Shown here: in pieces, positions 5,810 to 17,039 of the stretch
How positions within the stretch are numbered: the stretch's first letter is position 1
How the letters are laid out: every line of letters starts with the position of its first letter
Source of the DNA: a virus
Lineage: Duplodnaviria; Heunggongvirae; Uroviricota; Caudoviricetes
Virus record (IMG/VR): IMGVR_UViG_3300045988_007243
Length of the DNA: 64,000 nt
Reading direction: 5' to 3' (one strand)
Made by a program: the position numbers and the translations under genes
The notes under the pieces: generated by a model
Databases searched by the model: none
Told to the model about the DNA's origin: nothing
Seen by the model: the letters and a program-made list of their open reading frames with translations, nothing else

Positions 5810-7436
5810 ATTTTTATAAAATTTTATCGGTTGTCCCAACCTCTGGGTCACCATCATATGTGAATAAAATATCTATCCTTCTTAGCAACCTTCTTAATCT
5901 TACTCTCTATATAGTTATATAGTACTATATAGTATCTTAGTAACTATCTAGTGGTCTTAATAGCCCTCTGTATAACCCTTCTAACAAGCCCTCTAACAAA
6001 CCTTCTTAACAACCTATACAATCACCTTAACCATCTCTCTACACCTTCTTAGAAGCCCCTATACACCTCTTAATCTCTATGTCAGCTATGATACCCTCTA
6101 TAGGTGTTCACTAGGAAATACTAAGCCTCTATATAGACTGTTTTAACAAACTTAACAGGAATATCTTTACAGACCTTATCTCACAAGGTCTAACACGGTA
6201 CTAACAAGGTATCTTATAAGCCTGTTTATGCCTGTATTTTTAAAAGACTGTATAGGTAATTATTCAGAATTTTAAAATTTTTATAAAATAGGACTATCAA
6301 GTCATTTTTTAGGGTCTTTGAAGGGACTCAAAAATATCTGATTAGGGTGTATATCTGCTTGGTAGCCCTTAACAGCTCCCTTACAAGTACTTTGCAAAAT
6401 TTTAAAATATCCTTAACAATCTCTTAACAGTTCTCACATCTTCTTAACAACTCTTCAAAGGTCTTAACAGATTCTTAACAGAACTAACAAGGCTGTAACA
6501 GTTTCTTAACAGTTGATACATAGGCTTTACAGAATCTTAACAGATGACTAATAAGAGCTAACAGGGATTGGTAGATGATTCGGATGAAGCATCCTCATAA
6601 CAATACCAATTAGTTAATTTTAAAGAGTTATTTTGTTAAGATAATTAACAAGTTTCTAACAAGTATTTAATCTTTTTAACAAGCTATTAACATGGTCACT
6701 ACTCTTTTCTTATCGTTCCCTCTCCCTCTTAGTGATTCTCTAAACATACCTCTTAAAAGCTCTCTATAGCTCTTTATAAGCCCTTTTAAGCCTCTTCCTA
6801 GTAATTACACCCCAACTGTACAGACACCTTTTTATAGAGCTTTACAGGAGCTTTTAAGGCTATGTCAAAGACTCTTACAAGGCTTTTACGTGGTTTTAAC
6901 AGAGATTTAACAAGGGGCTAACAAGTTGCTAACAAGTGCCTTAAAAGCATAACTATGTAGGGATTGTTAAGAATTTGTTAAGAAAATGTTAAGGGGGCTA
7001 GCATTTACGTAACTTTATAGCTTCTTTTACGTAACTTTGAAGCAACTTTATAGCCCCTATAACATACTTTTAAGACACTAACAATAGGATTCGATAGATT
7101 CCTATCTCATAGCCCTTTTTAGTAGTTCACAAGAATACTAACGAGATAATAAAGCTTATAACCTTATAAGATTCTTTTAAGCCTCTATAAAGCCCTGTAA
7201 AGAGCTTTTTAGGGTGAGTTAATGCAATCCCTTAAGTTATATTGATAAGGCTGTTATAGAGCTTTATAGAGCGTTTTAGTGGTTGCCCTTCCCTTTCGGG
7301 TTATGGGCTTATATTTAAGTTGATTTGATAAGAGGTTATAGAGTAAACTATAGAGTTATTGCTTTTAAGGTATGGGATAGATTCTGGAAAGGAAAGGGAA
7401 AGGATTGTATAGGGATTCGATAAGACGTAAAAAAGC
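5810..7436. repeat. ORF-free G-poor region with dense short iterons (CTTAACAG/CTAACAAG, CTCTATAG/CTTTATAG, CTTTTAAG families)
   Basis: No ORF of 60 aa or more in any frame over about 1.6 kb between convergent transcription units; more than 30 TAACA(A/G) words, locally phased about 10-11 bp (6400-6560); TTTACGTAACTTT twice near 7000. Confidence 0.6.
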
Positions 7437-7491
7437 CCCTATGAGAAGGAGCTTTGAAGGTATCTGGGGCTATTTAGCCCCGTTGCGTCGA
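7437..7491 (-). terminator. Terminator region at the end of the minus-strand early array
   Basis: GGGGCTAAATAGCCCC hairpin and a GGGGC followed by a U-run on the minus strand, just past the stop of 7492..7740. Confidence 0.45.
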
Positions 7492-7740
7492 TTAGTTGTA
7501 ACCTTGTTTATTGTAGTACAGTGAGATAATCAAGTCACCCCAGTAATGATAGTGATGCTCGTCGTTTAATGCCTCTTTTACAGCGTCTTTCCAGAAGTCA
7601 TCAGTAGGGTTATAATCTGGGATAACTTGCTTGATAACTGTCTTCACTAATGAAAAACACTCATCAGTTCCACCAATATCAAATTTAACGTCCAGAGTAT
7701 AACAGCCATAAGCATTGACAGTTGCGCGGATAGTTGCCAT
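7492..7740 (-). CDS. Hypothetical early protein
   Basis: ORF preceded by the conserved leader AACTAGGAGATTCAAAAATG. Confidence 0.55.
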   Translation of the reverse strand: MATIRATVNAYGCYTLDVKFDIGGTDECFSLVKTVIKQVIPDYNPTDDFWKDAVKEALNDEHHYHYWGDLIISLYYNKQGYN

Positions 7741-7834
7741 TTTTGAATCTCCTAGTTTAAGGACTTTACTTAGTGGGGAAGGCCATTCCCTCCCCGTTGA
7801 TGAGTAATTTACTGCATGTTGGCGTATGTTGCAA
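7741..7834 (-). promoter_or_regulatory. Early promoter-leader cassette, family A (TTGCAA-N17-TAAATT, leader stem-loop GGGGAGGGAATGGCCTTCCCC, RBS)
   Basis: Sigma70-like -35/-10 with 17-bp spacer; the -10 overlaps the stop of the upstream gene; near-identical copies precede four other genes. Confidence 0.6.
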
Positions 7835-8072
7835 GCCTTTTTTCGTTGTATTTTGTAAGAATCTCACAAGATAAAACATCGTAATTTGTAATAGCGTTGC
7901 CTTTGTCGAGGTCAAAGAATCCAAACGCTTTACCGTCTTTGAATCCTACAACTTCATAAGACTCTTTGATGATTTCACCATTGAACAAATCGCTTTCAAT
8001 GCGGTGTAATAATGCTACGTTTTCTTTGTCGGTTGCGATTTGTAAAAGTGTGGTCAATTCTACGTTTTCCAT
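7809..8072 (-). CDS. Hypothetical early protein
   Basis: ORF with conserved leader. Confidence 0.55.
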   Translation of the reverse strand: MENVELTTLLQIATDKENVALLHRIESDLFNGEIIKESYEVVGFKDGKAFGFFDLDKGNAITNYDVLSCEILTKYNEKRLATYANMQ

Positions 8073-8163
8073 CTTGATAACTCCTAGTTTAAGGACTTTA
8101 CTTAGTAGGGAGGTTATCCCTCCCGTTGATTAGTAATTTACTTGTTTTGATATCTGATTGCAA
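8073..8163 (-). promoter_or_regulatory. Early promoter-leader cassette, family A
   Basis: TTGCAA-N17-TAAATT then GGGAGGGATAACCTCCC stem-loop and RBS; an additional TTGACA-N17-TAACTT candidate lies further upstream near 8240-8270. Confidence 0.55.
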
Positions 8164-8292
8164 GCAATTTTTTAAGTTTATCTATAAAGAATCTTTTAAG
8201 TTAATCCCTTTTAGATAAACCCCCTCGAACAAAGTTACCAATGTCAAGGGGCATTGTCAACACTTTTTTAAAAGTTTTTTGTAAGTTATTGA

Positions 8293-8634
8293 TTAACTGA
8301 TGAATATTTTTTCAGGTTTTACATAGCTGATACGCTGACTTTTTAGCAAGTCATCCCAGATTATTGCCGCAATATGAGAATAACCAGACTCACGCAAGAG
8401 CTTCATTGCTTTACATCTCGTTTCAAATCTGGTTGCGTAGTACTCACTATTCAAAACAGTTTTCTTCCCTTCGTTATCTGTATGGATAATCTGCATTACT
8501 TGAAAGGGGCTGACATCCTCGCCTTTGTTCCATTGCTCAAAGTATTTTAGGCACTGCATAGGTGACATCTTATCGCTTACTTGAGTTGACCAAGATGCGC
8601 CAGCTTTATCGGTAATTACGGTTACATAAGCCAT
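8293..8634 (-). CDS. Hypothetical early protein
   Basis: ORF with conserved leader, 113 aa. Confidence 0.55.
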   Translation of the reverse strand: MAYVTVITDKAGASWSTQVSDKMSPMQCLKYFEQWNKGEDVSPFQVMQIIHTDNEGKKTVLNSEYYATRFETRCKAMKLLRESGYSHIAAIIWDDLLKSQRISYVKPEKIFIS

Positions 8635-8726
8635 TTTTGAATCTCCAGTTTAGGATTTTATTTAGTGGGGAAGGTCATCCCCTCCCCGTTGATTGACAAT
8701 TTACAGATTTTTATCAGGCTTGTCTA
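8635..8726 (-). promoter_or_regulatory. Early promoter-leader cassette, family A
   Basis: TAGACA-N17-TAAATT, leader stem-loop GGGGAGGGGATGACCTTCCCC, RBS GGAGAT. Confidence 0.55.
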
Positions 8727-8957
8727 GTCTTTTTCAATGATAATTTCATATTGACCGTCAACACTGTCGAAATAGATTCCGTCGTCATCTTCTGTCTTAA
8801 AGTAACATTGTATATCATCACTGGCGGGATAGTCTTGCCTTGCTATCTGGCAAACTTGAATAGCATTTTCTTTACTTCCTGTAAACTCTTCAAGCCCTTT
8901 AAAGTCACATGAATGGCCATTACAAATTGAGAGGATGAGATAAACGGTTGTAAGCAT
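8724..8957 (-). CDS. Hypothetical early protein with hydrophobic N-terminus
   Basis: ORF, 77 aa; upstream AGCCCCTTGTAGGGGCT hairpin plus RBS. Confidence 0.45.
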   Translation of the reverse strand: MLTTVYLILSICNGHSCDFKGLEEFTGSKENAIQVCQIARQDYPASDDIQCYFKTEDDDGIYFDSVDGQYEIIIEKD

Positions 8958-9023
8958 GATTTAAGCCCTCTAAAAGCCCCTACAAGGGGCTGATTAGTGT
9001 TTATAAGGTGATTGCATAGGTTT

Positions 9024-9566
9024 TTAGAAAAAGCTCTTTAAATCCTCTTCTGCAATGTTTCCTGTCAGTGTGTCCATGATGTCACAAAAAACCTGAATAC
9101 TGTCGGACTGTTGAACACTTTTAGCAAGAAGTTCCAGAGACTTATCAAGATAGTTTAAATTTGGGTTATCCAGTGAAGGAAGACAAAAAGGCGAAAACAT
9201 AGCATTAAATTCAGTGATGTAAACCTTTTTAATCCAATTTAAATCGAAATATTCTGTAAAACTTGCCACACTCGACATATTATCACAAGAATAATCATCA
9301 TTTAACTCATCTTCTGGAATATCAAGTTCCAAGATGACAATGTTTTGAGTTTTCATCTGAAAAGCTGCGGTGATAGTGGCATTGCCCAGAGCTTGTTGTA
9401 TACCTTCAGATGCTATCTCTTCCGCATCGTCGCCATAGATTTTATTTTCTGGATAAACGTAAAAATTGCCGTCCATATCCGAACAATTCCATGCACCTGA
9501 TGGCTTATCACCGTTATTAATCAGGTTGAGGAAATTTTCTTGAGTAGTTCCGTGATAACATTTCAT
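9024..9566 (-). CDS. Candidate ADP-ribosyltransferase (H-Y-E class, Arr/diphtheria-toxin-like N-terminal YHGT motif)
   Basis: N-terminus MKCYHGTT...GAW...GNFYVYPENKIY resembles the NAD-binding (F)YHGT...W.GFY signature of Arr, diphtheria toxin and exotoxin A; acidic stretch ILELDIPEDE could carry the catalytic Glu; motif-level only. Confidence 0.35.
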   Translation of the reverse strand: MKCYHGTTQENFLNLINNGDKPSGAWNCSDMDGNFYVYPENKIYGDDAEEIASEGIQQALGNATITAAFQMKTQNIVILELDIPEDELNDDYSCDNMSSVASFTEYFDLNWIKKVYITEFNAMFSPFCLPSLDNPNLNYLDKSLELLAKSVQQSDSIQVFCDIMDTLTGNIAEEDLKSFF

Positions 9567-9652
9567 TTTTAGAATCTCCAGTTTAGGATTTAGTGGTAAA
9601 GCTCTTTATCTGAGGCTTAAGTTATCAACTTTTAAGCCCCTTGTAAAGTACT
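9567..9652 (-). promoter_or_regulatory. Early promoter-leader cassette, family B (TTTACA-N17-TAACTT overlapping inverted repeat GGGGCTTA-N13-TAAGCC)
   Basis: Conserved about 70-nt element shared with cassettes at 10365-10450, 11622-11710 and 12005-12090. Confidence 0.55.
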
Positions 9653-9856
9653 TTATTTGTTATTTTTGACAACTTTTAAAACTGCAAGATAGCCTAAGCA
9701 ATAAGAATCACCGAAGAGAGTCCTACCCATGAAAGAATCCTCTTTGATATCCTTTGCAGTGACAGTTTTTTCTACGCCGTGGGAAAGGACTATATCACCA
9801 ACTTTGATATCTTTGATGTGTGTAGTTTCAATGGTTAAACCATTAATAATAGCCAT
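9653..9856 (-). CDS. Hypothetical early protein
   Basis: ORF with family A leader, 67 aa. Confidence 0.5.
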   Translation of the reverse strand: MAIINGLTIETTHIKDIKVGDIVLSHGVEKTVTAKDIKEDSFMGRTLFGDSYCLGYLAVLKVVKNNK

Positions 9857-9949
9857 TTTCAGAATCTCCAGTTTAGGACTTTATTTAGTGGGGAAGGTCA
9901 TTCCCTCCCCGTTGATGTGTAATTTAGACTATCTAAAAATCAGTGTCAA
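9857..9949 (-). promoter_or_regulatory. Early promoter-leader cassette, family A
   Basis: TTGACA-N17-TAAATT, GGGGAGGGAATGACCTTCCCC stem-loop, RBS GGAGAT. Confidence 0.6.
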
Positions 9950-9959
9950 CAAAAATTTT

Positions 9960-10364
9960 TTATAGTTCTGCATAAATTGCATCGCAGATATTACGGAAAT
10001 CGTGATTTGCCAAATTACGCTGCAACCAAGTGGCGAAAAAGTCAGCGATTGCAAAGTTAGCATCATACTCGACAGATAACCACACTTTAACAGCAAATCG
10101 GAACATTTTCAAATCTAACTCTTTATTCATTACCTTAGATTTGCCTAACATGTCGGCCATTTCATGTTGTGCACCGTCTAGCGTGATACCTGCTGCAACG
10201 TCAGTCAATGAGTTTTTTACGCTTTCAACGTCTAAGATAACACTTTGAATCTTCCCAATAATGTTTTGCAGTGTTTTATCTGGTGCTGATGACGTGATAA
10301 CATTAATCCGGTTAACGGTCAAACGTGCTTTTAAAATTGATAATTCACGGTTATTAATAGCCAT
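9960..10364 (-). CDS. Hypothetical early protein
   Basis: Start set at the ATG after RBS GGAGAA (MAINN...); track start 10379 is a TTG inside the conserved leader. Confidence 0.5.
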   Translation of the reverse strand: MAINNRELSILKARLTVNRINVITSSAPDKTLQNIIGKIQSVILDVESVKNSLTDVAAGITLDGAQHEMADMLGKSKVMNKELDLKMFRFAVKVWLSVEYDANFAIADFFATWLQRNLANHDFRNICDAIYAEL

Positions 10365-10450
10365 TTTTAAGTTCTCCAATTTAGGATTTAGTGGTAAAGC
10401 TCTTTATCTGGGGCTTACTTTATCGAACTATAAGCCCCTTGTAAAGTACT
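10365..10450 (-). promoter_or_regulatory. Early promoter-leader cassette, family B
   Basis: TTTACA-N17-TAAAGT with GGGGCTTATAGTTCGATAAAGTAAGCCCC inverted repeat spanning spacer and -10. Confidence 0.55.
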
Positions 10451-10723
10451 TTACATTAAATGCAGTTTTTTGCCTTTTACTATAATGTAACTCGATGCGC
10501 TATTGCTTTGCACATCTTGATAAATTCTGCGTAAACGTCCTTCGTAGTATACTTTCCAACTGGTTGGAATCTTTTTCCCGTATCCTGTAGCAGTTTTTTG
10601 GAGTCCTGCAACTTGCCAATTTAAGATGTGTTGCTCAGCTTGTAAATCATCAAAGTGCATCACACCATTCACATAGTGACGCAGGGTTACGTTTAAAGTG
10701 CGACCGTTGTTAGTAGTATACAT
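10451..10723 (-). CDS. Hypothetical early protein
   Basis: ORF, 90 aa, preceded by RBS-only leader (co-transcribed with the upstream small ORF). Confidence 0.5.
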   Translation of the reverse strand: MYTTNNGRTLNVTLRHYVNGVMHFDDLQAEQHILNWQVAGLQKTATGYGKKIPTSWKVYYEGRLRRIYQDVQSNSASSYIIVKGKKLHLM

Positions 10724-10749
10724 TTTCAGAATCTCCTAGTTTAAGGATT

Positions 10750-10908
10750 TTATTTTGACAGTTCACTAATTAAGACATCAAAGATTATATCATTATCTGC
10801 TACAGTTGCAACACCAGTGATATAATCAATTTCTAAGATAACAACAACTTTCGTACATAAACCGTCATCTATATCATTCCAGACAACTTTATCACCTGCA
10901 CAAAACAT
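10750..10908 (-). CDS. Small hypothetical early protein (52 aa, below the track cutoff)
   Basis: ATG directly after a family A leader and RBS; translation MFCAGDKVVWNDIDDGLCTKVV... read from the sequence. Confidence 0.4.
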   Translation of the reverse strand: MFCAGDKVVWNDIDDGLCTKVVVILEIDYITGVATVADNDIIFDVLISELSK

Positions 10909-11002
10909 TTTTGAATCTCCTAGTTTAAGGACTTTATTTAGTGGGGAAGGTCATTCCCTCCCCGTTGATGTGTAATTTAATCTATCTAAAAACCAGTGTC
11001 AA
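10909..11002 (-). promoter_or_regulatory. Early promoter-leader cassette, family A
   Basis: TTGACA-N17-TAAATT, GGGGAGGGAATGACCTTCCCC stem-loop, RBS. Confidence 0.6.
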
Positions 11003-11331
11003 CAGTTTTGTTTTCGTTTGCTCAATTCTTGAACAATTACAGCGTAGTAGTCTTTTAAGTCACTGACATTTAAAGCATTTATCAGAGAATTATAATCATC
11101 AACTAACTGAAAATTATCTTTGAAGATGTCACTTATCTGATAGGTTTTCGCTTTATATCTGAAGCTCATCTCTAGCCGCTTTATTTGCTCATCACTGAGG
11201 CGCCCTAGAAAGCTTTCTACAAGGTTATTACTAACCTGCTGCGTAATTGCCTTACTTGCTAGATTATAGGCTTTATATGCCTTATATAGCGCGAAAATGG
11301 CAATGATTGCAGTGATACCAGTCATTAACAT
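10999..11331 (-). CDS. Hypothetical membrane protein
   Basis: ORF, 110 aa with N-terminal hydrophobic helix ITAIIAIFALY. Confidence 0.5.
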   Translation of the reverse strand: MLMTGITAIIAIFALYKAYKAYNLASKAITQQVSNNLVESFLGRLSDEQIKRLEMSFRYKAKTYQISDIFKDNFQLVDDYNSLINALNVSDLKDYYAVIVQELSKRKQNC

Positions 11332-11621
11332 GGTGTTTCCTCTTTACGTGATACTTTGCCATTTACAGTTATCTCATAGGATTCTAATAAATCGCTTTTA
11401 GACTTTACAGGACTTTTAAAAGTATTATCGTATATATTAACTTGTAATACAGGTTTTTTATACTCCCTGCAACTGTTCCATAAGCAAATCACTACACGAC
11501 GACCTTTTATTTTGCCGTGTAACCATTCCATAACATCATGCCTATTCCTTGATGTCTCGATAAAATCAATTTTGTTGAGTAATTTGCTCAAATTTTCACG
11601 CACTTGATTTGATAATTTCAT
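11325..11621 (-). CDS. Hypothetical early protein
   Basis: ORF with conserved leader, 98 aa. Confidence 0.5.
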   Translation of the reverse strand: MKLSNQVRENLSKLLNKIDFIETSRNRHDVMEWLHGKIKGRRVVICLWNSCREYKKPVLQVNIYDNTFKSPVKSKSDLLESYEITVNGKVSRKEETPC

Positions 11622-11710
11622 TTTAGAATCTCCTAGTTTAAGGTCTTTATTTGATAAAGCTCTTTATCTGGGGCTTAAGGTATCAGCTTTTAAGCCCCCT
11701 GTAAAGTACT
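11622..11710 (-). promoter_or_regulatory. Early promoter-leader cassette, family B
   Basis: Same conserved element as 9567-9652. Confidence 0.55.
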
Positions 11711-12004
11711 TTATTTGTTAATTTTCAGCTTTGCATAACTTCTCATTGTACGAATGGGGGATGTTAATGCTACGCGTCTAATGTATGCCTTTTTCGTGTA
11801 TACATTTGTCTTCCCGATAGTGTTTACACATGTAAAAAGGTTTATCGGTGAATTTTTTAACTTCAACTGTTTATCAACCTTCACGCCCCACCTTACAGCA
11901 GATTGTTTTCCGTTGTCAACCACTTTCCCGCATAACTTTTTAGCCATAACGCGAGCGTCATCACGAGTCTTTGCAGTAATTACAACGTTTTTGATAATAG
12001 CCAT
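11711..12004 (-). CDS. Hypothetical early protein
   Basis: Start set at the ATG after RBS GGAGAA (MAIIKN...); track start 12019 is in the leader. Confidence 0.5.
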   Translation of the reverse strand: MAIIKNVVITAKTRDDARVMAKKLCGKVVDNGKQSAVRWGVKVDKQLKLKNSPINLFTCVNTIGKTNVYTKKAYIRRVALTSPIRTMRSYAKLKINK

Positions 12005-12090
12005 TTTTAAGTTCTCCAATTTAGGATTGAGTGGTAAAGCTCTTTATCTGGGGCTTACTTTATCGAACTATAAGCCCCTTGTAAAGTACT
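12005..12090 (-). promoter_or_regulatory. Early promoter-leader cassette, family B
   Basis: TTTACA-N17-TAAAGT with GGGGCTTA-N13-TAAGCCCC inverted repeat, immediately after the stop of the upstream gene. Confidence 0.55.
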
Positions 12091-12474
12091 TTATTTGTTA
12101 ATTTTGAAGATAGTTACATAACCATCGCTGCCGATGATTTGTGATGCTCCAGCTTTTTCTACTTGATAGCCCATATTTTCAAGATGGTAAACAGCATCAT
12201 CATAACCATATGCACCGCCCTGATAACGTCTCTTATCACATCTTACTAATACCTTTCCACGTCCTGCCAGTGCATTTAGTACGGCTTTTTCACTTGAAAG
12301 TGTACCATCTAACATGGTTGCCGTGTAATGGTTGATTCTATTCCCGTTTACATCATACTTAAAATTGAATGCGTGAACAACGATAATGTTACCTTTAAAA
12401 TTTTCATCAAGTGACTTCTCCAGTGCGTTGCGAAAGTTGTCTTTGTTGATGAATTTAGGTGCACGATATGCCAT
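12091..12474 (-). CDS. Hypothetical early protein
   Basis: Start set at ATG (MAYRAPKF...) after RBS AGGAGATTCAAAA; track start 12540 lies in the leader. Confidence 0.5.
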   Translation of the reverse strand: MAYRAPKFINKDNFRNALEKSLDENFKGNIIVVHAFNFKYDVNGNRINHYTATMLDGTLSSEKAVLNALAGRGKVLVRCDKRRYQGGAYGYDDAVYHLENMGYQVEKAGASQIIGSDGYVTIFKINK

Positions 12475-12540
12475 TTTTGAATCTCCTAGTTTAAGGTTGT
12501 TGAGCTTGTCGCCCCGTCTGATGCAAATATTAGATAACAC
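12475..12540 (-). promoter_or_regulatory. Promoter (TTGACT-N17-TAATAT) and leader of the first array gene
   Basis: Sigma70-like hexamers read on the minus strand about 35-60 nt upstream of the ATG. Confidence 0.5.
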
Positions 12541-12983
12541 AGTTCAAAGAGTCAAGAAAATTTTTAAAAATATTTTTTGCAAAATTGTAATGAAACGGGT
12601 GCGCGCGACTACCACAAAACAGAACTACAATCAAGAATTATTTTTCAATCCGCTACAAATTTTTCTGTTGACTTTTATTTTCAGATGTGGTAGCCTTGTG
12701 AGAAATGGCGACAGTCCCACCTACCCCCACCTACCTGCACAATTCTAAAATGATTTTTCTTGCCCGACCTGATTTTTCTCTGCACGTTTTGAAAATGAAA
12801 AAACCCTTTGGAGATTACCTGCACAGTTTGAAAATGAATTTTCTCTTTGGAGTTCAAAATTTTCTCTATAGATTCCTCTACAGAACTCTACCTGCACAAA
12901 TCTGAAATGAAAAAGCCCTCCTTACCTGAAAAATTTACCAGATAAGAAAGGCTTAGTCTATTGTGAATATACTACGAAGTTTC
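12541..12983. repeat. Intergenic region with four copies of an about 30-bp motif (minus sense TTTTCATTTTCAAA-N-TGTGCAGGTA) and a GGTAGGTGGG direct repeat
   Basis: ACCTGCACA occurs 3 times plus one variant on the plus strand at 45-70 bp spacing; no ORF. Confidence 0.5.
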
Positions 12984-15931: not shown

Positions 15932-16513
15932 CTAAATCATCCTCACTTTCAAACTTTCTGCACTTATAGAGTTAGTTCCAAAACCACGCATAAAAAGCAA
16001 GTAATCATGCTCTATATTGTGCCTTAAAAACATCTCAGTAGGTATTCTCTGAGATTCACCTCTCGCTGTCAAGAGTCCAATTGCAGCATGGTTAGCAATT
16101 GCATCAATAATATTGAAAACATACGTTGGTTTTGCTCTTACAGAGTCAAGCAAATTAGTGTACTGTGAAAATGACCCATCAATCAATTCTGTTGAGCAAT
16201 CTTCGTGATTAAAATTTGTAAGAACACCATCAATATCTGCTAAGATGAGGTTACCTTTTTCTACAAGGTCTTTATTGACTATGACTAAGCTGTCACGCCT
16301 TACACCTATAGTTTGTCCAGTCTCTTTATCTACAACATTCACAATTGTCTCTGATGTGTGGAACTCTTCGAGTGAACATACAACTTCTCTTGCGGTGTCT
16401 TCAAAATCCCTACACTGTTCTGGAGTCCATACACAGGAATCAAGACCTAACTCATGAGGGTGCAAGTCGTAAGCATGGCACAGTACTTCATCAGACTTTC
16501 TTAATTTTTTCAT
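15932..16513 (-). CDS. HAD-superfamily phosphatase candidate (nucleotidase-like)
   Basis: LILADIDGVLTNF matches HAD motif I (DxDGT/V); GLLTARGE resembles motif II. Confidence 0.45.
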   Translation of the reverse strand: MKKLRKSDEVLCHAYDLHPHELGLDSCVWTPEQCRDFEDTAREVVCSLEEFHTSETIVNVVDKETGQTIGVRRDSLVIVNKDLVEKGNLILADIDGVLTNFNHEDCSTELIDGSFSQYTNLLDSVRAKPTYVFNIIDAIANHAAIGLLTARGESQRIPTEMFLRHNIEHDYLLFMRGFGTNSISAESLKVRMI

Positions 16514-17039
16514 GGTTTACCTTAGAAATGTTTGTTGCAAATTCACATTGAGCAATCACTTTCATATTGTTATAGACATCTTGAGAATATTTCTTAGCTT
16601 TAGGAATTTTGTATGAATACCCAGCATTATAAGATGCTAAAACTTTTTGTAAAGTCTTCTTTGACTTTGGTTGACCATGTACCTTCGTCCAAAACTCAAG
16701 CTCTTTGTGAGTTTCCTTAGCAGCATAATCAAAGTCTTTTAAGAGTTTCTTTTTAGCCACATTAGGACTAATTTTGTTACGCTTTACAACAGTCTTCAAG
16801 TGATTCTGGAAAATACCATAGTCATGGGTCTTTTTATTCTCTACCTTCAGACCTAACTCTGACTCTTGTAAGGCTATAGCAGCTAGAGTGATACCCCAAC
16901 CTTTACCCATATTATTCTCACCATACTGGTAAGCTTTTAACATGTTTACTTTTTGGCTAATTGATAGCTCTGGGCAGTCAACTGCATAAGATAAGTGTGC
17001 TGTAAACATTAAGCACAAACCTAGAATCAATTTCTTCAT
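16491..17039 (-). CDS. Secreted lytic transglycosylase (SLT domain) with signal peptide
   Basis: N-terminal signal peptide MKKLILGLCLMFTAHLSYA; SLT motifs QESELG, YGIFQ, SYNAG. Confidence 0.55.
   Translation of the reverse strand: MKKLILGLCLMFTAHLSYAVDCPELSISQKVNMLKAYQYGENNMGKGWGITLAAIALQESELGLKVENKKTHDYGIFQNHLKTVVKRNKISPNVAKKKLLKDFDYAAKETHKELEFWTKVHGQPKSKKTLQKVLASYNAGYSYKIPKAKKYSQDVYNNMKVIAQCEFATNISKVNHEKIKKV

Follow-up and report, generated by a model that had tools for sequence, protein, structure and literature searches.

The promoter early stem-loops (PeSLs) of T4-type phages (Arbiol et al., 2010, PMC2839356; Comeau et al., 2014, PMC4122927) are the closest described counterparts of the elements considered here, namely an array of intergenic cassettes in a 64,000-nucleotide (nt) stretch of DNA from a Felix O1-like phage (IMG/VR record IMGVR_UViG_3300045988_007243; the whole stretch is referred to as the window). 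PeSLs lie in hyperplastic regions and mediate insertions and deletions (indels) through hybrid cassettes, and their promoter and terminator activity, as well as mini-circle formation, were shown experimentally (PMC2839356, PMC4122927). A further example is provided by the PAK_P1-like Pseudomonas myoviruses, which were formerly grouped with the Felix O1-like phages and contain 2-6 copies of a near-identical, lineage-specific TTGACA-N17-TAgAAT repeat of 41 nt, confined to the variable, presumed early region (PMC4309531). For the Felix O1-like phages themselves, two genome papers call the initiation and timing of transcription unknown (PMC3185647, PMC4690856), and later papers give only generic promoter predictions or call early regulation unknown (including PMC4690856). 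The 2010 Felix O1 paper listed direct repeats of 57 and 39 base pairs (bp), uninterpreted and not among its promoters (PMC3185647); these were found here to be parts of the two cassette families described below, B and A, respectively. No paper interpreting the cassettes and no Felix O1 transcriptome or start-site map was found in a literature search of incomplete coverage, and an earlier description is therefore possible.

The window belongs to Felixounavirus (Ounavirinae), and the region of interest, ~91% identical to that of Escherichia phage HY02, matches 257 phage records, nearly all of them Felix O1-like. The array occupies the minus strand from a first promoter, P1 (12555), to a terminator at ~7453-7429 (Table 1), bounds that correspond to those of the Felix O1 segment from gene 14 to gene 23, which is flanked by terminators t13 and t23 (PMC3185647). 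It was observed to contain 13 small genes (g1-g13), in agreement with the number of about 13 given by an initial annotation of the window. No Pfam family was found for any of the 13 proteins, all ten of those checked against PHROGs are of 'unknown function', and the proteins are mutually unrelated. The main comparison set consisted of 11 genomes, namely the window and ten related loci (L001-L010). The explanation considered probable, taken as a whole, treats the array as the early, variable part of the phage genome, in which each unrelated orphan gene would carry a portable cassette. In it, a host sigma-70 promoter would be followed by a leader with secondary structure and by a ribosome-binding block of standard form (CCU(U)AAACU(A)GGAGAUUC-N-AAAAUG), and recombination would take place between the copies.

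Five family A cassettes (before g5, g8, g11, g12 and g13) and four family B cassettes (before g2, g3, g7 and g9), each of 92-102 nt, were found in the window, the same numbers as initially proposed. The accompanying statement that almost every gene carries such a cassette was too broad: g4, g6 and g10 have no full cassette, and g1 combines its own promoter, P1, and a small hairpin of another type with the shared ribosome-site block. The family A stem GGGGAGGGAATGACCTTCCCC (at most 3 mismatches) was matched 4 times against 0.01 expected; the fifth A copy, at 8171-8073, has a shorter stem of 6 bp and is recombinant. The family B core TTTACAAGGGGCTTA-N13-TAAGCCCC was matched 4 times on the minus strand against 0 expected. 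A ribosome-binding site common to both families, as had been proposed, is present in the shared block TAAACT(A)GGAGATTC..ATG, which occurs in 12 copies, only within 7759-12493 and only on the minus strand; in every copy GGAG is followed after 7-9 nt by ATG. The predicted overlap of stop codons with promoter hexamers was also observed, for g4 (TGA in TTGACA, 11001-10999), g10 (TAG in TAGACA, 8726-8724) and g12 (TAA in TAAATT, 7811-7809). Each of the ten related genomes contains 3-6 B and 4-6 full-length A copies, and profile searches revealed no further copy in the 64-kilobase (kb) window or in 36 kb of HY02 that includes the part absent from the window.

How do these cassettes compare with PeSLs? 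Every sequence-level hallmark of a PeSL was found: a repeated intergenic motif of ~70-100 nt, a sigma-70-like promoter with an AT-rich upstream tract, a G-run/C-run stem-loop, a Shine-Dalgarno site and ATG at the 3' end, and a location in a variable region between orphan genes, where indel junctions carry hybrid cassettes. In most PeSLs the stem-loop covers the -10 or falls between the two hexamers, the arrangement also seen in family B. The host phage, however, is not T4-like: the lineage here is Ounavirinae, with genomes of about 87 kb, and there is no sign of sequence homology, a statement made without direct comparison. The cassettes also differ from PeSLs in forming two discrete interleaved families that have only the 3' block in common, in the family A hairpin lying downstream of the start, in the leader of the messenger RNA (mRNA), although the PeSL papers allow various positions, in the family B stem-loop topping a longer three-helix hairpin, and in all copies lying in one 5.5-kb array, whereas PeSLs occur in several regions. 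The initial likening to PeSLs was thus well founded in that the anatomy is the same and the setting is a variable region with orphan genes (PMC2839356), and the data support the view that the cassettes are the same kind of element as PeSLs, as a functional class and not as a homology family. The two interleaved families, the predicted leader hairpin of family A and the nesting of the putative family B promoter in a long conserved hairpin are features of their own. The PAK_P1-like repeats differ further, since they are promoter-only, with no hairpin or shared ribosome-site block described and no recombination role shown (PMC4309531).

The promoter signatures were read from position-specific conservation. 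In family A (56 copies, 11 genomes), the -10 hexamer TAAATT is 100% invariant and the T and G of the -35 are invariant, while the spacer is only 57% identical. Upstream of this -10, six unrelated -35/spacer classes were found (TTGACA, TAGACA, two TTGCAA, TTGACG and TTGATT), all of which show a match of at least 4/6 to TTGACA exactly 17 nt upstream (chance 0.047 per class); over all loci, 71 of the 76 distinct A promoters show at least this match at 17 nt. In family B, TTTACA is essentially invariant, and 68-69 of 77 distinct cores have T, A and T at -10 positions 1, 2 and 6; the others appear, as judged by eye, to have the same -10 motif displaced by 1 nt. Positions 3-5 are near random, and the TTTACA-N17-TAAAGT consensus of the initial annotation fits only two of its four copies, the other two having TACCTT or TAACTT. 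The invariants of the B hairpin loop are the T, A and T of TAnnnT, 17 nt past TTTACA, plus one further A. Inspection of the sequences showed C-A, a context typical of start sites, at positions 7 and 8 past the -10 in P1 and both families, and family A transcription would most likely begin at the A of this conserved C-A, 8 nt past the -10. The A and B cassettes are, on these signatures, well supported as predicted sigma-70 promoters. FelixO1 and VpaE1 were rebooted from purified genomes in an Escherichia coli cell-free system (PMC10933291), indicating that host polymerase can start their programme.

The family A hairpin always begins 10 nt past the -10, and the predicted start leaves a 3-nt overhang, with the folded hairpin at +4 to +24. 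Among the 56 copies, 32 distinct variants were observed, every one with a stem of 6-8 bp. The hairpin is more stable on the sense strand in 23 of the 32 (Wilcoxon p = 0.0013), and 14 variants have G.U pairs, whose counterparts on the opposite strand would be C.A mismatches; this bias and these pairs point to an element of the mRNA. Family A mRNAs would begin with 3 free nucleotides followed by a G/C hairpin of 6-8 bp, shielding them against 5'-end-dependent decay, and the hairpin may be regarded as a predicted mRNA stabiliser. Stabiliser hairpins of this 5'-terminal kind, such as that of the ompA leader, were reportedly described by Emory, Bouvet and Belasco in 1992. Family A resembles the ompA type in placing a stable hairpin a few nt from the mRNA 5' end, but differs in that its start site is a predicted one.

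The loop of the A hairpin contains an ATG (GGGAAUGACC) after a Shine-Dalgarno-like GGAGG (e.g., 10955-10953). This ATG is called as the start codon in several public records, giving cassette-encoded N-terminal extensions (L005:3484-3801, L003:4363-4614 and L010:5063-5305). Felix O1 ORF19 is annotated through the loop ATG as 105 and not 90 amino acids (aa), the 80-aa 'prohead assembly scaffold protein' of ESCO45 starts at it, and the caller of open reading frames (ORFs) used in the present analysis likewise took it in Alf5. Gene duplication was considered as the source of the repeats after g6, g8 and a 176-aa gene absent from the window had clustered, and was rejected when pairwise BLASTP found no similarity; the false cluster arose because the loop ATG had been called as a start. 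The shared block contains a feature of its own, a self-complementary UCCU..AGGA (e.g., 10930-10917) that partly covers the Shine-Dalgarno site and has CCUU..AAGG as its equivalent in Erwinia phage phiEa104. A weak hairpin that tunes translation and is shared between genera is one possible reading of it.

Family B is kept in Felixounavirus, Mooglevirus (Citrobacter phage Michonne) and Kolesnikvirus (phiEa104), where the protein flanking it is 65% identical in Michonne and 41% in phiEa104; it was not found beyond these three Ounavirinae genera. A search of 2.9 million viral contigs with the invariant B core gave 45 matching stretches, all on contigs of 54-94 kb and usually several on each. The three-genus alignment is invariant at CTTTACA, at the positions of TAnnnT, in parts of the stem and at GATAAAGAG-TTT. 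The inverted repeat that had been noticed initially is present (99.4% paired in 46 copies, with compensatory changes at two pairs), but it is only the top of a longer imperfect palindrome of 57 nt. Unguided RNAalifold analysis of the three-genus alignment gave a three-helix hairpin of ~57 nt, in which an upper stem of 8 bp is joined through a 3x3 internal loop to two helices of 5 bp each, split by a 1x1 loop. In this structure 98% of the alignment cells are paired, as against 33-59% in slid controls, and 0 of 500 shuffles reached its covariation score. Of the 133 distinct copies taken from all loci, 110 have G-C and 13 have U-A at pair 7-57, and when column 7 changes, two local palindromes break, while the long-range pair 7-57 is held in 13 of 16 cases. 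One-sided changes gave sense-strand G.U in 186 cells (among them 118 at pair 8-56, 50 at 22-42 and 12 at 5-59) against 4 cells of the antisense type. This pattern favours a sense-strand RNA hairpin. A strand call by folding energy was dropped as inconsistent between genera, and the asymmetry of G.U over A.C was used instead. The predicted B start falls immediately beyond the upper stem, so that only read-through transcripts would contain the hairpin in full. Family B would be a promoter, TTTACA-N17-TAnnnT, nested within the 57-nt three-helix hairpin, which in read-through RNA may insulate neighbouring genes by attenuating or processing the read-through and by leaving the upstream mRNA with a 3' hairpin; attenuation, processing, a protective 3' end and protein binding could each be its role.

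Gene order is collinear in the 11 genomes, and single genes come and go. Column-by-column comparison revealed four chimeric cassettes at indel junctions, as expected under the modular shuffling that the initial annotation had invoked. In the cassette before g12, 22 diagnostic positions through the hairpin match the cassette of the absent 176-aa gene and 5 positions after GGAG match the g12 type, giving a crossover at ~8111-8081. The cassette before the g11 homologue of Felix O1 has the 5' half of the g8 type and marks the loss of g8 to g10. Alf5 and Felix O1 are both without g12, and their different crossover intervals (columns 64-99 vs 33-60) indicate independent losses. Among the 11 genomes, g5 is found only in the window and phage finno and leaves a duplicated ribosome-site block; the solitary block before g6 is the footprint of its insertion. 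The copies also show concerted evolution. The TAGGAG/TGGAG variant follows the genome (purity 0.741, p = 0.0004) and not gene position (p = 0.058), with 12 of 12 copies one way in HK3 and 11 of 13 the other way in SeKF63; stem variants are genome-specific (e.g., GGUGC/GCACC in 4 of 4 ESCO45 copies); and two types of B loop replace each other at one and the same gene position. The sub-variants appear to behave as if exchanged between copies. Homologous recombination between cassettes is proposed because near-identical sequence recurs in direct orientation: direct repeats of 45-105 nt would allow genes to be deleted, inserted and swapped and the cassettes to be homogenised. In this small sample, the variable genes lie in runs of same-family cassettes, and the genes of the interleaved middle (g6 to g9) are seldom missing.

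Are the cassettes promoters at all? In phage T7, irregular RNase III hairpins with an internal loop lie between the early cistrons, and the upstream mRNA keeps a protective 3' hairpin after they are cut on their 3' side. The family B hairpin has a comparable layout of upper stem, internal loop and lower stem, with 18 pairs and internal loops of 1x1 and 3x3, but its lower stem is short, with only 10 A/U-rich pairs, and the T7 sites have no promoter inside. A reading modelled on the RNase III-processed early mRNA of T7 would have one long transcript from P1, with the repeats acting as intercistronic RNA elements. It would accommodate the retained pairing of both hairpins with substitutions favouring the sense strand, the lack of terminators between most genes, the likeness of the B hairpin (8-bp upper stem, 3x3 loop, 10-pair interrupted lower stem) to T7 sites, and the weak -10 hexamers of family B (3-4 of 6), the last of which also weighs against the portable-promoter explanation. 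So do several other observations. A generic promoter scan was not enriched over shuffles (27 vs 19.4 +/- 4.8), and position-specific conservation was used instead because such a scan is uninformative in AT-rich DNA. The copies are interrelated, so that shuffle statistics overstate their independence. The B folding energies make the antisense strand as stable or more within Felixounavirus and the sense strand more stable only in Michonne and phiEa104. No U-tract follows any A or B hairpin (only the hairpins at 8991-8975 and ~7453-7429 have one), which makes classical intrinsic termination unlikely, and the idea that these hairpins are intrinsic terminators was rejected. Reverse-transcription polymerase chain reaction (RT-PCR) on Felix O1 detected one set of ORFs (16, 20, 21 and 22) at 5 min and another (14, 17, 19 and 23) at 25 min, a mixed timing with no clean A/B split (PMC3185647); the initial description of the genes as early is thereby supported in part. 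A single transcript nevertheless leaves unexplained why unrelated sequences upstream of the A hairpin should always have a TTGACA-like hexamer at a distance of exactly 17 nt from an invariant TAAATT, and likewise why the T, A and T of the -10 are invariant in the B loop, 17 nt after TTTACA, and tested T4-type PeSLs of the same layout are strong promoters (PMC2839356). It is considered unlikely. Rather unlikely, too, is a dual module, in which family B would be both a DNA promoter and an RNase III-type processing hairpin in read-through RNA. Cleavage on the 3' side of the internal loop would give a 5' end (AGAUAAAGAGCUUUA...) identical to that from initiation at the embedded promoter, and the fully conserved GAUAAAGAG-UUU block would be lower stem and common leader at once; if so, downstream mRNAs would all share one leader whatever their origin, and upstream mRNAs would end in a protective hairpin.

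The initial annotation suggested that the B inverted repeat looks like an operator, which would allow a dimeric phage or host protein, binding there or at the flanking TAAAG-NN-CTTTA palindromes, to switch family B off and so regulate the two families differently. The palindromic sequence does overlap the -35, spacer, -10 and start site, GATAAAGAG-TTT is invariant in three genera beyond the apparent need of pairing, and symmetric changes in two arms would also be expected of a palindromic operator. Recognition of double-stranded DNA, however, does not predict the excess of sense-strand G.U cells, the changes in column 7 break the local palindromes and keep pair 7-57, Pfam and PHROGs scans revealed no DNA-binding protein candidate among the array proteins, and the Felix O1 RT-PCR data show no A/B timing split. 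The operator was thus not favoured and appears quite improbable, the repeat being the upper stem of the three-helix hairpin; a variant with two separate 12-bp palindromic operators (TAAAG-NN-CTTTA) is disfavoured because the covariation is long-range and not local. Hardly any credence can be given to the remaining alternative, that the repeats are leftovers of tandem duplication or selfish miniature mobile elements with no expression role. The high identity of the copies would suit it, but the downstream genes are unrelated, terminal inverted repeats and target duplications are lacking, all copies have the same orientation and are placed precisely between stop and start codon with the ribosome site in register, and the cassettes are conserved across genera in which the flanking proteins are only 41-65% identical. 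Portable cassettes with predicted promoters, hairpins and a ribosome-site block, recombining with one another, remain the probable explanation.

Table 1. Elements and genes of the array, in order of transcription (positions in the window; (-), minus strand).
Feature	Position	Details	Basis or score
P1, first promoter	12527..12555 (-)	TTGACT-N17-TAATAT, A/T-rich upstream tract; predicted start A12519	promoter scan
P1 leader hairpin, type C	12502..12514 (-)	GGGC-N5-GCUC, one G.U pair	fold
g1	12091..12474 (-)	127 aa, orphan gene	
Family B cassette before g2	12005..12096 (-)	-35 12085-12080, -10 12062-12057, extended hairpin 12092-12036, predicted start A12049	
g2	11711..12004 (-)	97 aa, orphan gene	
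Family B cassette before g3	11622..11716 (-)	-10 TACCTT	
g3	11325..11621 (-)	98 aa, orphan gene	
g4	10999..11331 (-)	110 aa; start overlaps g3 stop (ATGTTAA); no cassette; TGA stop within next -35	
Family A cassette before g5	10909..11010 (-)	-35 11002-10997, -10 10979-10974, hairpin 10963-10943, predicted start A10966	
g5	10750..10908 (-)	52 aa	
Ribosome-site block alone, before g6	10724..10755 (-)	without promoter, without hairpin	
g6	10451..10723 (-)	90 aa, orphan gene	
Family B cassette before g7	10365..10456 (-)		
g7	9960..10364 (-)	134 aa, orphan gene	
Family A cassette before g8	9857..9957 (-)	-35 9949-9944, -10 9926-9921, hairpin 9910-9890	
g8	9653..9856 (-)	67 aa, orphan gene	
Family B cassette before g9	9567..9658 (-)	-10 TAACTT; one G.U pair in stem	
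g9	9024..9566 (-)	180 aa, orphan gene	
Attenuator-like internal hairpin	8975..8991 (-)	AGCCCCU-UGU-AGGGGCU then UUUU	
g10	8724..8957 (-)	77 aa; own ribosome site (GAGGG) after attenuator-like hairpin; no cassette	
Family A cassette before g11	8635..8734 (-)	-35 TAGACA 8726-8721, hairpin 8687-8667	
g11	8293..8634 (-)	113 aa, orphan gene	
Conserved structured non-coding stretch	8172..8292 (-)	121 nt	
Chimeric family A cassette before g12	8073..8171 (-)	hairpin 8124-8108	
g12	7809..8072 (-)	87 aa, orphan gene	
Family A cassette before g13	7741..7842 (-)	-35 TTGCAA 7834-7829, -10 7811-7806, hairpin 7795-7775	
g13	7492..7740 (-)	82 aa, orphan gene; array runs on to its stop (7492)	
Array end	7429..7481 (-)	B-like remnant hairpin, then intrinsic terminator (9-bp stem + U-run)	z = -4.91
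Predicted starts	12519, 12049, 11669, 10966, 10409, 9913, 9611, 8690, 8127, 7798 (-)	A, 8 nt past -10	

Some features of the array lie outside the two cassette families. Genome comparison showed that all relatives have kept P1 as the first element of the array, and HY02 and SeKF63 have an A-type hairpin in place of the type C leader hairpin. The 69-nt context of the attenuator-like hairpin at 8975-8991 does not fold significantly (z = -1.17). By comparison, the non-coding stretch at 8172-8292 folds very stably (-32.6 kcal/mol, z = -4.73) into two or three hairpins, with TTGACA motifs present in tandem; its equivalent in relatives precedes the 176-aa gene, and it may act as a small RNA or as a leader with a regulatory role. 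The B-like remnant at 7457-7481, just past the g13 stop, reads GGGGCT-AAAT-AGCCCC then AGATACC, to be compared with ..TAAGCCCCAGATAAAG in family B. The unrelated genes g1, g2 and g8, which precede B cassettes, share near-identical end codons, AAAA(T/A)TAACAAATAA (..K-I/N-N-K-stop), at 12094-12108, 11714-11728 and 9656-9670 (-), and the B cassette seems to reach ~15 nt into the upstream coding sequence, donating its last residues. A known RNA family was also considered and set aside: no Rfam match in the window reached the gathering thresholds, nothing relevant appeared at E <= 1, and the two chance-level matches (E about 0.8) in the region lie on no cassette.

The upstream neighbour of the array is a macro-domain 'phosphatase' gene (a T4 Tk.4 homologue) with its terminator. 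Between this terminator and P1 lies a 360-nt non-coding stretch with four copies of a ~22-nt repeat, TCATTTT(C/A)(A/G)AA-N-TGTGCAGGTA, at 12700-12930 (-). At least one copy is present in nearly all Felixounavirus loci examined and also in Michonne, and the repeats could be regulator binding sites or iterons. Just downstream of the array, at 7004-7058, tandem repeats of 11/22 nt (TTTACGTAACTTTATAGC..) were found. The phage finno record has annotated repeat regions in the equivalent area, several records put the genome end 1-2 kb past the array, and UAB_Phi87 has terminal repeats of 608 bp (PMC4837284); the repeats may lie near the physical genome terminus. Control by RegB, the T4 endoribonuclease that cuts GGAG in early ribosome sites, was also considered, with phiEa104 having a 'predicted T4 endoribonuclease RegB' (L013:4276-4788). 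It was rejected, as the window homologue of this protein, at 16494-17039 (-), contains no RegB family and gave a weak, sub-threshold Pfam match to SLT transglycosylase. Both proteins look like secreted SLT-type transglycosylases, the Michonne homologue is annotated 'lysozyme-like', and the public RegB annotation in phiEa104 is probably wrong.

What do the cassettes mean for Felix O1-like phages? They provide ten candidate early promoters with predicted start sites, and they explain the differences in gene content among Felixounavirus genomes in this region, for which ~257 phage records are available in GenBank. They also cause the start-codon mis-annotation seen in public records. Felix O1-like phages are used in the biocontrol of Salmonella and E. 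coli and are now engineerable in cell-free systems, and the cassettes would offer natural portable expression units, as predicted, and at the same time predictable sites of instability. Recombination from cassette to cassette is a simple source of gene gain and loss, directly observed here at chimeric junctions, and the cassettes extend the PeSL principle past the T4-type phages. Overall, the findings suggest that standardised cassettes of promoter and ribosome site are a recurring solution by which phages try new early genes.

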